From: an uncultured Oscillospiraceae bacterium | GTDB taxonomy: Bacteria > Bacillota > Clostridia > Oscillospirales > Oscillospiraceae | Direction: 5' to 3' | NCBI GenBank assembly: GCA_905235655.1 | Contig: CAJOMA010000003.1 | Location: 4,067 to 68,066, forward strand | Length of the DNA stretch: 64,000 nt | Shown here: positions 40,842-46,931 of the stretch, piece after piece | Layout: the number at the start of each line of letters is the position of its first letter | How positions within the stretch are numbered: the first letter of the stretch is position 1 | Translations under genes and position numbers: made by a program | The notes under the pieces: model-generated | The model's input: only the letters and a program-made list of their open reading frames with translations | Told to the model about the DNA's origin: nothing | Database searches by the model: none

Positions 40842-42734
40842 TCAGATCATCAGACTGCAAACAAGATCGCTGAACGACGTCGGGTCTTCCAGCGGCAGAT
40901 TCGCCATCAGCAGACCCTGCTGATACAGCAAATCTGCATATTTCTTCGCCTTATCGGGATCGGACGCAACGCACGCGCGCAGGACAGACAGCGCCGCGTG
41001 ATCCGGATTGATCTGCAGCACCTTGCCGGCCTTGAGGTCGGCGTTCGGGTCCATCGCGCGAAAATACTTCTCCATCTCAAAGCTCATGCCGCCGTCCGGC
41101 ACCATGGAGACCGCGTGCGAGCCGAGTTCGTTCGAAACGCGCACGTCCGCGACCTTGTCGCCGAGTGTTTCCTTGAGGAAGGCAACGCAGTCCTTGAACT
41201 GCTCCGCTTTTTCCTCTGCGGCCTTCTTTTCCTCGTCCGTCGCAAGATCGAGCTCGTCCGTCAGGATATTGCGGAATTCATGCTCCTCATACTTGTTCAG
41301 CGTCTGCGGGATGAATTCATCGACCTGCTCCGTCAGAAGCAGCACGTCGAAGCCGCGCTCGCGTAGCAGGGTCGTCTGCGGCAGCTTGGAAAGCTGCTGC
41401 GCCGTATTGCCGGTCACAAAGTAGATGTGCTTTTGCGACTGCGGCATCTTCTCGCAGTATTCCTTGAGGGTCACGAGCTTCCCTTCCTTGTCGGAATGGA
41501 ATTCAACCAGGTCCTGCAGCATTTCCTTGTGCATGCCGTAATCGGAGACAAGACCGTACTTGAGATTGCGTCCGAAGGCGGCGTAGAACTTTTCATATGC
41601 CGCTCTGTCCTGCTCCAGCAGGCGAAGCAGCTCCGCCTTGATCTTCTTTTCGAGATTAGACGCAATTGTTTTCAGCTCTCTCGTGTGCTGCAGCAGCTCG
41701 CGGCTGATGTTCAGACTCAGATCCTGCGTATCCACTACGCCGCGGACGAAACGGAAATGCTCCGGCAGGAGGTCTTCGCAGTGATCCATGATCATCACGC
41801 CGGAGGAATAGAGCTGCAGACCGGACTTATAATCCTTCGTGTAGAAATCATACGGCGCTTTCGCAGGAATGTAGAGCAGCGCCTTATAGGTGACCGTGCC
41901 CTCGACGGAGATCGGGATCACGCTCACCGGCTCCTCGTAATCAAAGAACTTCTCGCGGTAGAAGGCTTTGTATTCCTCGTCCGTGACGTCCTTCTTGTTC
42001 TTTTGCCAGAGCGGCACCATGGAGTTCAGCGTCTGATCCTCAAGAACCGTCTCATATTTCGGCTCGTCGGCGTCCATCGTTTCCTCCGTCGGCTTGCGCT
42101 CCTCCACCTCCATACGGATCGGATAGCGGATATAGTCAGAATACTTTTTCACCAGGCCGCGCAGGCGGTAGTCCCCGAGATAGTCGCTGTAACGCTCTTC
42201 CTCCGTATCGGGCTTGAGCTTCAGAATGATCTGCGTGCCCGCGCTCTCCTTTTCGCATTCCGTGACCGTATAGCCGTCTGCGCCGGAGGAGTGCCATTTC
42301 CACGCCTGATCTTCCCCGTACCTCTTCGAGATCACGGTGACCTCCTCGGCGACCATGAACGCGGAATAGAAGCCGACGCCGAACTGACCGATGATGTCGA
42401 TATCCTCCTGCTTTTCCATCGCCGCCTTGAAATTCAGAGAGCCGCTGTGCGCGATTGTGCCGAGGTTTTCTTCCATTTCCTCCCTGCTCATGCCGATGCC
42501 GTTATCGGAAACGGTCAGCGTTCCTGCCTCCTTATCGGCGGCGAGGCGGATATAGAAATCGCTTCTGCTCAAGCCGACGGACTGATCCGTCAGCGCCAGA
42601 TATGCGAGCTTATCAATCGCGTCAGAGGCGTTCGAAATCAGCTCCCGAAGAAAAATCTCCTTATGCGTATAAATCGAATTGATCATCAAGTCCAGCAGGC
42701 GCTTGGATTCCGCCTTAAACTGCTTCTTTGCCAT
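40842..42734 (-). CDS. htpG: Molecular chaperone HtpG (Hsp90)
   Basis: FLRELISNASDA, DNGIGM, IGQFGVGFYSAFMV and GVVDTQDL motifs. Confidence 0.96.
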   Translation of the reverse strand: MAKKQFKAESKRLLDLMINSIYTHKEIFLRELISNASDAIDKLAYLALTDQSVGLSRSDFYIRLAADKEAGTLTVSDNGIGMSREEMEENLGTIAHSGSLNFKAAMEKQEDIDIIGQFGVGFYSAFMVAEEVTVISKRYGEDQAWKWHSSGADGYTVTECEKESAGTQIILKLKPDTEEERYSDYLGDYRLRGLVKKYSDYIRYPIRMEVEERKPTEETMDADEPKYETVLEDQTLNSMVPLWQKNKKDVTDEEYKAFYREKFFDYEEPVSVIPISVEGTVTYKALLYIPAKAPYDFYTKDYKSGLQLYSSGVMIMDHCEDLLPEHFRFVRGVVDTQDLSLNISRELLQHTRELKTIASNLEKKIKAELLRLLEQDRAAYEKFYAAFGRNLKYGLVSDYGMHKEMLQDLVEFHSDKEGKLVTLKEYCEKMPQSQKHIYFVTGNTAQQLSKLPQTTLLRERGFDVLLLTEQVDEFIPQTLNKYEEHEFRNILTDELDLATDEEKKAAEEKAEQFKDCVAFLKETLGDKVADVRVSNELGSHAVSMVPDGGMSFEMEKYFRAMDPNADLKAGKVLQINPDHAALSVLRACVASDPDKAKKYADLLYQQGLLMANLPLEDPTSFSDLVCSLMI

Positions 42735-42757
42735 GTAAATCATCTTCCTTTGTAGTT

Positions 42758-42784
42758 TTGGCACTCTGCGCTTTTGAGTGCTAA
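42758..42784 (-). promoter_or_regulatory. CIRCE operator (HrcA)
   Basis: TTAGCACTC-N9-GAGTGCCAA, one mismatch to consensus, just downstream of TTGCAA-N16-TATAAT. Confidence 0.88.
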
Positions 42785-42886
42785 TCCTATTATATCGCGG
42801 AAAAATAAAATTGCAAGCCCCGTAACAAAGAATTCATACTTTATTTCTTTGCCGCTGTGTGATACACTGAAAACGAGGTGAAACAC

Positions 42887-44488
42887 ATGATTACAGTCAG
42901 CGATGTGGCGCTGCAATTCGGCGGCACTTACCTGTTTCAGCACGTTGATCTGCAATTCACTGCGGGTAACTGCTACGGCGTGATCGGCGCGAACGGGGCG
43001 GGAAAATCGACGTTTTTGAAGCTCCTTTCCGGCGAACTGGAAACGACGAAGGGCGAAATCACGATCAAACCCGGTCTGCGCATGTCCGTATTGAAGCAGA
43101 ATCAGTTTGAATATGACGCATATTCGGTGATCGACACGGTGATTATGGGCAACAAACGTCTTTATGACGTGATGAAGCAGAAGGACGCGCTATACGCAAA
43201 GCCTGATTTTTCCGATGATGACGGCATTCTCGCCTCTGAGCTGGAGATCGAATTTGCCGAGATGAACGGCTGGGAGGCGGAGTCAGACGCGAGCCGCATT
43301 CTGCAGGGGCTTGGGATTCCCGTCGAGCTGCATGAGGACGCGATGGCGGACACCGACCCGCGTCTGAAGGTCAAGGTTCTGCTTGCGCAGGCGCTGTTCG
43401 GCAATCCGGATATTATTCTTCTGGACGAGCCGACCAACAACCTCGATATCGAGTCGATCAACTGGCTGGAAAACTTCCTGCTGGACTATGAGGACAACGG
43501 CACGGTGATCGTCGTCAGTCACGACCGTCACTTTCTTAACACCGTCTGCACGCACATCGTGGACATCGACTACGGCAAGATCAAAATGTACGTCGGCAAC
43601 TACGATTTCTGGTATGAATCCAGTCAGCTTGTGCAGACCCTGCTGCGCAACAAGAACAAGCGTAATGAGGAAAAGATCGCGGAGCTGCAGGAATTTATCT
43701 CCCGCTTCTCCGCGAACAAGGCAAAGAGCAAGCAGGCAACGGCGCGCCGCCGCCTGCTGGAAAAGCTGAGCATCGAAGAGATTCCGATGTCCTCCCGCCG
43801 CTACCCCTTCGTCGGCTTTACCAGAGAACGTGAGGTTGGCAAGGATATTCTGTTTGTCACGGAAATCAGCAAAACCTTGGACGGCGTCAAGCTGCTCGAC
43901 AAGGTCTCCTTTACCGTGAACAAGAACGACAAGATCGCCTTCGTCGGCGAAAACGAGCTGGCGCAGACGACAATGTTCAAGATACTGATGGGAGAATCAG
44001 AGCCGGACGAGGGCAGCGTCCACTGGGGCGTGACGACCTCGCAAAGCTATTTCCCGAAAGACAATTCTGCATTCTTTGAGGGCTGCGACGATTCCCTTGT
44101 AGACTGGCTGCGGCAGTTCTCCGCAAAGAAGGACGACGTTTATCTGCGCAGTTTTCTCGGCAGAATGCTCTTTTCCGGCGACGATGTGTTCAAGCCGGTC
44201 AGCGTCCTGTCCGGCGGCGAGAAGGTACGCTGCATGCTTTCCAAAATGATGCTGTCCGGCGCAAACGTACTCCTGCTCGATCAGCCGACCAACCATCTCG
44301 ATATGGAATCCATCCAGGCGGTCAACAACGGCATGGCAGCTTTCCCGGGAAATATCCTGTTCGCAAGCCACGATCATGAGCTTTTGCAGTCGGTCGCCAA
44401 CCGGATTATTGAGTTCCGCCCCGACGGGACGATCACCGATTACCTCGGCACTTATGACGAATATCTGGAATACAGAAAAGACCAATAA
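42887..44488 (+). CDS. ABC-F family ATPase (YbiT-like)
   Basis: Two NBDs and no TM helices; GANGAGKST, LLDEPTN and LSGGEK motifs; PtIM-type linker. Confidence 0.9.
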   Translation: MITVSDVALQFGGTYLFQHVDLQFTAGNCYGVIGANGAGKSTFLKLLSGELETTKGEITIKPGLRMSVLKQNQFEYDAYSVIDTVIMGNKRLYDVMKQKDALYAKPDFSDDDGILASELEIEFAEMNGWEAESDASRILQGLGIPVELHEDAMADTDPRLKVKVLLAQALFGNPDIILLDEPTNNLDIESINWLENFLLDYEDNGTVIVVSHDRHFLNTVCTHIVDIDYGKIKMYVGNYDFWYESSQLVQTLLRNKNKRNEEKIAELQEFISRFSANKAKSKQATARRRLLEKLSIEEIPMSSRRYPFVGFTREREVGKDILFVTEISKTLDGVKLLDKVSFTVNKNDKIAFVGENELAQTTMFKILMGESEPDEGSVHWGVTTSQSYFPKDNSAFFEGCDDSLVDWLRQFSAKKDDVYLRSFLGRMLFSGDDVFKPVSVLSGGEKVRCMLSKMMLSGANVLLLDQPTNHLDMESIQAVNNGMAAFPGNILFASHDHELLQSVANRIIEFRPDGTITDYLGTYDEYLEYRKDQ

Positions 44489-44490
44489 TA

Positions 44491-44521
44491 AACGGTGCGC
44501 TGCTAACACAGCGCACCCGAT
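44491..44521. repeat. Terminator hairpin; left direct repeat of MITE copy 2
   Basis: aacggtgcgctgctaacacagcgcacccgat; repeated at 44773-44804 with one extra G. Confidence 0.82.
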
Positions 44522-44772: not shown

Positions 44773-44804
44773 AACGGGTGCGCTGCTAACACAGCGCACC
44801 CGAT
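44773..44804. terminator. ispH-rpsA terminator; right direct repeat of MITE copy 2
   Basis: 11-bp stem cgggtgcgctg-ctaaca-cagcgcacccg. Confidence 0.8.
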
Positions 44805-44813
44805 ATTTTTCGC

Positions 44814-46931
44814 TTATTCTGCGGGAGCCTCTTCAACTGGCGCAGTTTCCTCAACGGGAGCTTCTTCCACGGAAGCAGCTTCCTCGGCGGGAGCCTCTTC
44901 CACAGGAGCGGCTTCCTCAACGGGAGCCTCATCCACAGGTGCAGCTTCCTCAACAGAAGCTTCGTCGACAGGCTCTTCCTCCTCTGCAGGAGCTTCCTCC
45001 TCTGCAGGAACCGGCACAAGCAGCGCGCGGATGGAGAGGGAGATACGCTTGCGCTCGGAGTCGATCTCGATGATCTTCGCTTCGACTTCCTGACCTTCGC
45101 TCAAGGCGTCGGAAACCTTCTCGACGCGATGATCCGAGACCTGCGAAATATGGATCAGACCGTCAACCCCGGGCAGAATCTCTGCGAACGCGCCGAAATC
45201 GACAATCTTCACGATCTTGACCTGCGCAACGTCGCCGACGGAATACTTCTCGCAGAACTGGTTCCACGGATTCATCTCCGGCGTCTTGTAGCCGAGAGAA
45301 ATCTTCTTCTTCTCGGGATCGGCCTTTATGACGAAGACCTCGATGGTATCGCCGACCTTTACGACCTCGTCGGGAGTCTTAATGCGTCCCCAAGACAGCT
45401 CGGAGATATGGACCATGCCGTCCACGCCGCCGATGTCGACAAAGGCGCCGTAGCTGGTGAGGGACTTAACGGTGCCGGTGTACTTCTTGCCGACCTCGAT
45501 CTCGCTCCAAACCTTCTCAATCGCAGCTCTGCGAGCCTCGCCGCTCAGGGCGCGGATAGAGCCGACGACTCTGCGGCGGGCGCGGTTGAATTCGGTGATC
45601 TTCATTTTCAGGGTCTTGCCCTTGAGCTCGCTCAGGTCGCCGCCCTTGGCGACGCCGGTCTGAGAAGCCGGAATGAACACGCGGACGCCCTTGACGTTGG
45701 CGACCAGACCGCCCTTGTTCTCTTCGGTAATGACGCCTTCAACGGGAGTCTTTTCCTCGCAGGCCTTTTCGACCTCGTCCCACACCTTCATGCCCTCGAG
45801 CTTTTTGCGGCTGAGCTGAACGGTGCCCTCCTGATCGTTGACGCGAACGACGAACACTTCGATCTCGTCGCCGACCTTCAGGACTTCCTCGGGTTTTACG
45901 TTGGGGTCTGCGCTGACTTCGTCATACGGGATGTAGCCGGCATGCTTCGTGCCCAGATCGACCTGGACTTCGGTGGAACCGATCGCGGTAACGGTGCCAA
46001 AAACCTTATCTCCTGTATTTAAAGTCTTGATGGAGTTTTCGAGCAAAGCCTCAAAGCTCTCCTCTGCGACTGCATCAACATTAGAAATTTCGCTCATAGT
46101 CTTATTGACCTCCTTTATAATCCACGCAGGCGTCGACGCGCCTGCAGTGATGCCGATGGTAGCGCAATTCTGATATACGGCAGGATCGAGCTCGTCCGCG
46201 CAGTCGATCAGGTCGACCCTCGCGCAGTGCTCTGCGCAGATATGCGCCAGACGACCGGTATTGGAGCTGTTGCGGTCTCCGACGACGATCATGGCGTCGC
46301 AATTCGCCGCCAGTTCCGCGGCTTCTGCCTGCCTGTTTTCAGTTGCTCTGCATATTGTATCAAAGATTTCTCGATTTGTACACACTTTTTTTACGATTTT
46401 CTTGCAAGATTCCCATAAAAATTGCGTACTTGTCGTCTGAGAAACCATTGTGACGGGCAAATCCTTATTATTTTCCGAAGAATTCAGCCAGTTTTCGAGC
46501 TCCTCTGCGCTGGAAAAGACCAAAGGATGCCTGCACCAGCCGGCGATCGCTATGATCTCGGGATGGGTCGGCGTGCCGATGATGATCGGCTGTCTGCCAT
46601 CCTCCTCCGCCTTGGCGACAAGAGAATGGATGCGCTTGACGGACGGACAGGTCGCGTCGATGATCTCGACGTTTTTTGCCTCCAACGCTTCATACGTCGC
46701 GCGCGGAATGCCGTGAGAACGGATGATGACCGTCGAGCCGTCCGGAATATCGTCAAGGGAGGAAATCTCCTTGACGCCCAGCTCCTCAAAATGGCGTACC
46801 AGATGCCGGTTGTGTGCGATCGGGCCGAAGGTCACGGTGGACTTCCCTTCCACGATCGCCTGTTCGACCAGACCGACCGCGCGGCTGACGCCGTAGCAGA
46901 AGCCGGCGGTTTTCGCTGCTACAATCTTCAC
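44814..46931 (-). CDS. ispH: Bifunctional IspH (HMBPP reductase) / 30S ribosomal protein S1 fusion
   Basis: AGFCYGV, IAHN, DATCP, TIC.AT..RQ and SSNT IspH motifs, then four S1 repeats and an acidic tail. Confidence 0.92.
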   Translation of the reverse strand: MKIVAAKTAGFCYGVSRAVGLVEQAIVEGKSTVTFGPIAHNRHLVRHFEELGVKEISSLDDIPDGSTVIIRSHGIPRATYEALEAKNVEIIDATCPSVKRIHSLVAKAEEDGRQPIIIGTPTHPEIIAIAGWCRHPLVFSSAEELENWLNSSENNKDLPVTMVSQTTSTQFLWESCKKIVKKVCTNREIFDTICRATENRQAEAAELAANCDAMIVVGDRNSSNTGRLAHICAEHCARVDLIDCADELDPAVYQNCATIGITAGASTPAWIIKEVNKTMSEISNVDAVAEESFEALLENSIKTLNTGDKVFGTVTAIGSTEVQVDLGTKHAGYIPYDEVSADPNVKPEEVLKVGDEIEVFVVRVNDQEGTVQLSRKKLEGMKVWDEVEKACEEKTPVEGVITEENKGGLVANVKGVRVFIPASQTGVAKGGDLSELKGKTLKMKITEFNRARRRVVGSIRALSGEARRAAIEKVWSEIEVGKKYTGTVKSLTSYGAFVDIGGVDGMVHISELSWGRIKTPDEVVKVGDTIEVFVIKADPEKKKISLGYKTPEMNPWNQFCEKYSVGDVAQVKIVKIVDFGAFAEILPGVDGLIHISQVSDHRVEKVSDALSEGQEVEAKIIEIDSERKRISLSIRALLVPVPAEEEAPAEEEEPVDEASVEEAAPVDEAPVEEAAPVEEAPAEEAASVEEAPVEETAPVEEAPAE

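Follow-up and report, generated by a model that had tools for sequence, protein, structure and literature searches.

Each ATP site of an ABC protein is formed by the Walker motifs of one nucleotide-binding domain (NBD) and the signature of the other, and the ABC-F factors are commonly depicted as clamps that work with two ATP, a mechanism that has been studied with double E-to-Q mutants. In the window analysed here, a stretch of 64,000 nucleotides from an uncultured Oscillospiraceae bacterium, a predicted ABC-F gene carries its non-consensus motifs in only one of the two composite sites, which makes it a natural test case for whether one ATP suffices for a translation factor of this kind. A sequence-only reading of the locus had pointed to three changes, i.e. 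TDPRL at the signature of NBD1, Lys to Gln in the Walker A of NBD2 and Glu to Gln in its Walker B, had assigned them all to one site and had proposed a naturally asymmetric factor that binds the ribosome. We recomputed the motif coordinates from the ORF and fixed the homologous positions by HMMER alignment to E. coli YbiT (Table 1). Every motif that had been quoted was recovered at its position and all three changes indeed belong to one composite site (site 2), but the list was incomplete. Besides the Walker A Lys, the catalytic Glu and the partner signature, site 2 lacks the A-loop aromatic residue, two P-loop glycines (Gly4 and Gly6) and the Q-loop Gln, all of which had been missed. Site 1 is fully canonical in the A-loop, Walker A, Q-loop, Walker B and H-loop of NBD1 and in the LSGGE signature of NBD2.

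Table 1. Features of the predicted ABC-F gene and its 3' flank, with positions in the window
Feature	Position	Strand	Remark
Shine-Dalgarno sequence GAGGTG	42875..42880	+	6 nt 5' of ATG 42887
ABC-F gene, assigned to the YbiT/YkpA type	42887..44488	+	ORF, 533 aa
NBD1 Walker A GANGAGKST (site 1), canonical	42986..43012	+	
NBD1 Q-loop Gln71 (site 1)	43097..43099	+	invariant
NBD1 signature position TDPRL (site 2), degenerate	43352..43366	+	aligns with VAPGW of E. coli YbiT
NBD1 Walker B ...LLDE, catalytic Glu181 (site 1)	43412..43429	+	Asp180 and Glu181 invariant
NBD1 H-loop His212 (site 1)	43520..43522	+	invariant
Interdomain linker / P-site tRNA interaction motif (Pfam ABC_tran_Xtn)	43559..43795	+	PF12848, E 1.1e-21, residues 225-303
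NBD2 A-loop position, Leu331 for aromatic (site 2)	43877..43879	+	
NBD2 Walker A position GENELAQTT (site 2): Gly4 to Glu, Gly6 to Ala, Lys to Gln	43946..43972	+	aligns with GTNGVGKST of YbiT
NBD2 Q-loop position, Lys391 for Gln (site 2)	44057..44059	+	
NBD2 signature LSGGE (site 1), canonical	44207..44221	+	
NBD2 Walker B ...LLDQ, Gln466 for catalytic Glu (site 2)	44267..44284	+	Gln codon CAG 44282-44284
NBD2 H-loop His495, kept	44369..44371	+	His in 102/112 rows, lost in some relatives
Two identical 28-nt GC-rich terminator hairpins, 3' flank	44494-44521 and 44777-44804		direct orientation; outside the ABC-F feature

The gene begins at ATG 42887 and not at GTG 42878, the start (42878-42880) given by the ORF finder, which lies inside the Shine-Dalgarno sequence; the N-termini of the orthologues match the ATG. 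Pfam detected two ABC_tran domains (PF00005) and one ABC_tran_Xtn (PF12848) and no other domains. The best NCBIfam model was PRK15064 (YbiT type) with 653.9 bits, the next model reaching 327, and this score is below the NCBI curated equivalog cut-off of 762 bits; PRK15064 was built on proteobacterial YbiT, and the Firmicutes YkpA-type proteins are similarly distant from it. By sequence, the best match in the PDB was E. coli YbiT (E 1.9e-159, compared with 1.5e-73 for EttA); the sequence identity of the protein is ~43-45% with E. coli YbiT and 64% with B. subtilis YkpA. Phylogenetically it was placed inside the clade holding YkpA with a support of 99-100. On these sequence comparisons the protein is a YbiT/YkpA-subfamily ABC-F ATPase, and from its 43-45% identity to the ribosome-bound structures of YbiT we infer that it binds the E site in its ATP-bound form.

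An AF2 model built on 37 sequences (pLDDT 89.2) showed a soluble two-NBD fold in which the linker consists of two long helices (239-274 and 278-293). The model was closest to ribosome-bound YbiT, with a TM of 0.83 to a "non-hydrolytic" and 0.74 to a "hydrolytic" conformation. In the model, the helix after the NBD2 P-loop begins three residues early, and half of the P-loop is folded into the helix. The genome (1.6 Mb, 95% complete) holds no second YbiT-type gene and one other ABC-F, of a different type (622 aa; L002:1225-3090, minus strand, on contig C9 of the same genome), which has fully canonical motifs and matches the NCBIfam model 'ribosomal protection-like ABC-F' above its cut-off (517 vs 380 bits). 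An EttA-type gene was not found in this genome with the ABC-F queries used.

Orthologues with 56-79% identity were present in 52 of the 201 genomes sampled from the order and in 94 of the 401 sampled from the phylum, and the sampled genomes without an orthologue held only a paralogue type of ~32% identity. A scan of named genomes yielded 80 loci, ranging from Faecousia, Lawsonibacter, Anaerotruncus, Acetobacterium and Clostridium to Paenibacillus and Bacillus subtilis. Motifs were tabulated for 208 extracted sequences, of which 112 had neither the Lys nor the Glu of site 2, 84 had both, 10 lacked only the Lys and 2 lacked only the Glu. When the phylum was sampled evenly, both residues were kept in 61 of 89 orthologues and both were gone in 22. 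Outside the YbiT-like group, the other full-length ABC-F proteins that represent clusters (~45, with 30-42% identity) have the canonical Walker A Lys and Walker B Glu in NBD2, with the exception of P0147; as these representatives are canonical and more than 100 orthologues share the degenerate pattern, the pattern is not due to chance. The alignment of orthologues that had been suggested as a check on the sequence-only reading thus shows the changes to be conserved. A strain-private change or a sequencing error was rejected, as the pattern recurs in more than 100 orthologues.

In the 112 forms without the site-2 Lys and Glu, the catalytic positions of site 1 are invariant and those of site 2 reach entropies of up to 2.9 bits. 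The G, N, G, G, K and T of the NBD1 Walker A are invariant across 112 + 75 orthologues. LSGGE shows no variation at any of its five residues in the 112 forms, and among the 75 forms with Lys and Glu it varies at the first position alone (Ile in 4). At site 2, the NBD1 signature has an entropy of 1.3-2.9 bits across orthologues and the Lys position 2.77 bits, and the A-loop position, where the canonical YbiT-like representatives and the paralogue of the same genome have F or Y, is I, V or L in all YkpA-type rows. Some residues of site 2 are still or newly constrained, i.e. the P-loop Glu357 (101/112), Thr361 (109/112), Asp465 (111/112), His495 (102/112) and Gln466 (95/112, the others being H, R, D, G or N), and their conservation could reflect the binding of some non-canonical ligand in this site.

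The linker is the best-conserved part of the protein (mean entropy 0.76). The mean entropy is 1.07 for NBD2 and 0.94 for NBD1, and pairwise dN/dS is 0.04-0.15 in each of NBD1, the linker and NBD2, dS being close to saturation. Since the entropy of NBD2 is near that of NBD1 and dN/dS is equally low in both, the domain is maintained by purifying selection of the same strength as in NBD1, and its pocket alone is released from constraint. A decaying redundant paralogue was excluded on account of the same low dN/dS and of the gene being the only YbiT-type gene in the genome. Apart from the motifs, only four positions (89, 278, 419 and 438) differ systematically from the forms that keep Lys and Glu, none of them interpretable, which suggests that YkpA-type proteins as a group already made little use of site 2.

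Trees were constructed without the motif columns, using FastTree on 119 and 208 rows and IQ-TREE (LG+G4) on 65 rows. Outside the YkpA clade were YbiT-like representatives of other phyla, including Ralstonia YbiT, which have canonical Walker A, A-loop, Q-loop and Walker B in NBD2 and NBD1 signatures that vary (VAPGW, IDAAI, IPTDR and others). Throughout the YkpA clade (support 99-100), B. subtilis included, the A-loop aromatic residue, the Q-loop Gln and one or both P-loop glycines are gone. The premise of the sequence-only reading that studied ABC-Fs usually have two working sites therefore breaks down in this subfamily, where the signature of YbiT is degenerate and site 2 of YkpA is already depleted. 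Nested within the YkpA clade was one main Lys-less clade with an Asp-Gln Walker B (SH-aLRT 93) that covers Clostridiaceae, Oscillospiraceae, Acetobacterium and many other families. The Asp-Asp and Glu-Asn variants of Walker B have separate origins in other Lys-less lineages, and the signature form xD[PGA]R[LQ] is confined to an Oscillospiraceae subclade that includes the window protein.

The two Lys-bearing Gln forms, those that lack only the Glu, nest within the Lys-less clade. An order in which the Lys goes first and the Glu is then free to change fits both the counts and the nesting. The co-loss of Lys and Glu is dominated by one large clade, and an independent-contrast test had too few contrasts (p at least 0.25), with none in the opposite direction. 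Parsimony on the 208-row FastTree tree gave an ambiguous polarity, one loss with regains or parallel losses, and the 65-row IQ-TREE tree recovered a single main Asp-Gln clade, with small events apart from it. Jointly with the single-ATP mechanism set out below, we consider it likely that the window protein is the end point of a stepwise decay of site 2 in the YbiT family, with B. subtilis YkpA as an intermediate.

The explanation that we favour as a whole, and regard as likely, is that the protein is the sole YbiT/YkpA-type factor of the cell and acts as an E-site translation factor on a single ATP at site 1. By homology, it would bind the ribosomal E site when ATP-closed, its interdomain linker would reach the P-site tRNA and the peptidyl-transferase centre, and it would aid translation through difficult, charged stretches of the nascent peptide. 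One ATP would be bound and hydrolysed, at site 1, and NBD2 would be retained for the signature that it gives to site 1 and for its ribosome contacts. The interface at site 2 would shut by protein-protein contact without nucleotide, the Glu to Gln change taking away a buried negative charge that has no Mg-ATP to balance it, and hydrolysis at site 1 alone would open the sandwich and release the factor. The stoichiometry of one ATP and the binding to the ribosome are both what we infer from sequence. With site 1 invariant and ribosome binding predicted by homology, the naturally asymmetric ribosome-binding ABC-F proposed earlier is still the best reading of the protein.

Site 2 is probably without nucleotide, since it has lost the residues by which phosphate and adenine are held, its former anion hole is occupied by a conserved Glu and the P-loop of the model lies half in a helix. 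More tentatively, at somewhat less than even chances, we propose a housekeeping ABC-F factor whose whole cycle of binding to the ribosome and release runs on one ATP and whose second pocket is permanently nucleotide-free, closed by contacts of the P-loop Glu and the Q-loop Lys in the place formerly taken by Mg-ATP. If this is true, two-site cooperativity would be dispensable for ABC-F function and site 2 of B. subtilis YkpA would already be vestigial. An E-to-Q change traps an ABC protein only if ATP sits in that site. The sequence-only reading had likened the Gln of NBD2 to the laboratory trapping mutation; the residue change is indeed the same, but the analogy probably does not carry over, as the Walker A Lys, the glycines and the A-loop residue are gone from a site that is likely to be without ATP. 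The toxicity of a trapping allele may account for the near absence of Gln from forms with an ancestral Lys. As a caveat to the single-ATP mechanism, in MsrD it is site II that is the more important catalytic site (bioRxiv 10.1101/2021.11.29.470318), so that it is not evident that ABC-Fs at large can lose site 2 without harm.

The constrained residues of site 2 bear on a different reading, in which the site remains tightly occupied by ATP or some other nucleotide that it does not hydrolyse, the ligand serving as a glue for structure or regulation, and Gln466 is a natural trap at site 2 only. The conservation of Thr361/Thr362, Asp465 and His495 and the strong preference for Gln at 466 would suit this reading, as would the heterodimeric ABC exporters, CFTR, TAP and MRP1, in which the non-consensus motifs likewise all fall in one composite site with the other canonical, and where exporter-type degenerate sites keep their Walker A and hold ATP through many cycles (PMC7756269). 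These proteins are transporters, whereas the window protein is predicted to be a soluble ribosome factor, and it lacks the ATP-binding elements that they keep, so that its site is probably empty. We consider a nucleotide-holding site 2 unlikely, given that there is no Walker A Lys and almost no constraint at its position (2.77 bits), that two P-loop glycines are replaced, one of them by a conserved Glu expected to repel phosphate, that the adenine-stacking aromatic residue and the Q-loop Gln are gone and that the AF2 model puts half of the P-loop in a helix.

It is also conceivable that the protein does not cycle as a translation factor and is a passive or slow-release binder of the E site, or has a role off the ribosome. 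The loss of one catalytic site could slow release, and in E. coli YbiT the strongly degenerate NBD1 (site-2) signature has been linked to closed non-hydrolytic conformations (bioRxiv 10.1101/2023.06.15.543498), the conformation to which our model is nearest. We regard this as quite improbable, as the catalytic residues of site 1 are all invariant, the linker is the best-conserved region, dN/dS is low and the four non-motif positions that alone differ from the Lys- and Glu-bearing forms (e.g. B. subtilis YkpA) imply that the rest of the machine is unchanged. Least probable, and by our estimate very improbable, is an antibiotic-resistance or efflux-linked ABC protein like CD2068, the YkpA homologue of C. 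difficile (with a reported identity of 67% to YkpA, PMC8144104), which has been reported to raise resistance on expression in E. coli and whose disruption increased susceptibility in C. difficile (PMC5577244), since the window protein consists of two NBDs and the ABC-F linker with no further domain, scores only 180-270 bits with the models of antibiotic-resistance ABC-Fs (Vga, Msr, Lsa, Sal, OptrA, CplR) against cut-offs of 680-1450, and is encoded by a chromosomal gene of broadly vertical distribution with no linked transporter genes and no conserved neighbourhood.

CD2068 itself has been treated as a multidrug efflux ABC transporter and drug target (PMC5577244, PMC8144104, PMC11928863). Its ABC-F architecture and lack of a membrane domain suggest a ribosomal role instead of efflux.

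E. coli YbiT (PDB 9njf, 9nlf and related) resembles the window protein in its subfamily, linker, length (530 vs 533 aa) and degenerate NBD1 signature; it binds the E site of the 70S ribosome and its site 2 is already imperfect (VAPGW). Unlike the window protein, it is still canonical in the Walker A, A-loop, Q-loop and catalytic Glu of NBD2 and has ATP in site 2. B. subtilis YkpA belongs to the same clade and shares the lost P-loop glycines (GNNEIAKTT in YkpA), the change of the Q-loop Gln to Lys, the lost A-loop aromatic residue and a non-consensus signature, but it keeps the site-2 Walker A Lys and Walker B Glu, both of which are Gln in the window protein, and the signature of the latter is the more divergent. 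Engineered EQ2 and single-EQ mutants of ABC-Fs (e.g. MsrD E434Q) carry the same change at the catalytic position of the NBD2 Walker B; the laboratory mutants keep ATP binding, are trapped on the ribosome and are toxic (PMC6723617; bioRxiv 10.1101/2021.11.29.470318), whereas the natural form is without the Lys, the glycines and the A-loop residue and is kept under selection as the sole factor of the YbiT type.

ABC-F proteins have been reported to bind the E site when ATP-closed and to be trapped by E-to-Q changes (PMC6723617), and YbiT-EQ2 inhibits translation and binds 70S ribosomes (PMC6723617; bioRxiv 10.1101/2023.06.15.543498). YkpA/YbiT promotes the translation of charged motifs, for which there is genetic evidence for B. 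subtilis YkpA (PMC11381351). As quoted in PMC8144104, through which alone the work is known to us, Quentin et al. 1999 held YkpA to be "assumed to not fully function". A literature search returned no paper on the loss of the site-2 Walker A, Q-loop or A-loop in YkpA types or on Lys-less Gln forms. The degeneracy of the YbiT signature is already published, and what is added here is the B. subtilis intermediate, the further lost motifs and the frequencies at the level of the phylum.

The one-site state is common to many Clostridia, and the clade is abundant in those of the gut and rumen. A large natural clade with one intact site would offer a clean system for what each site contributes, and a test of the ATP cost per rescue event and of whether the non-hydrolytic conformations of YbiT belong to the same trend. 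In the "EQ2" constructs of YkpA-type proteins, the E-to-Q change at site 2 may be irrelevant, and the change at site 1 may do all the trapping.

Two YbiT-like proteins from outside the Firmicutes also show an altered site 2. P0123, from a Spirochaete MAG cluster, is without the Walker A Lys and keeps Asp-Glu, and P0147 has a scrambled Walker A and Asp-Asp. Judged by these sequences, site 2 seems to have decayed independently in the two, and its decay seems recurrent in the YbiT-like subfamily.

The ABC-F gene is apparently monocistronic. Upstream lies htpG (40842-42764, minus strand) in divergent orientation and downstream ispH-S1 (44814-46931, minus strand) in convergent orientation. No conserved gene neighbourhood was found around the orthologues at 138 loci; htpG was next to the orthologue in 10 of these, mostly in close relatives, and ispH-S1 in 3, which were the three closest relatives. 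The product of ispH-S1 is a fusion of IspH with ribosomal protein S1 whose final 60-odd residues form a very acidic repeat rich in Glu, Pro, Ala and Val, and YbiT/YkpA-type factors are reported to aid the translation of acidic stretches. As this adjacency is confined to the three closest relatives, it is probably a coincidence.

The two hairpins of the 3' flank enclose a small inserted element of ~255 bp where the ABC-F and ispH-S1 genes converge. An Rfam scan of the locus gave a sub-threshold match on the hairpin repeat and nothing else. The second hairpin is followed by a T-run and would terminate transcription of the plus strand, and the first, which follows an A-rich run, would terminate that of the minus strand.
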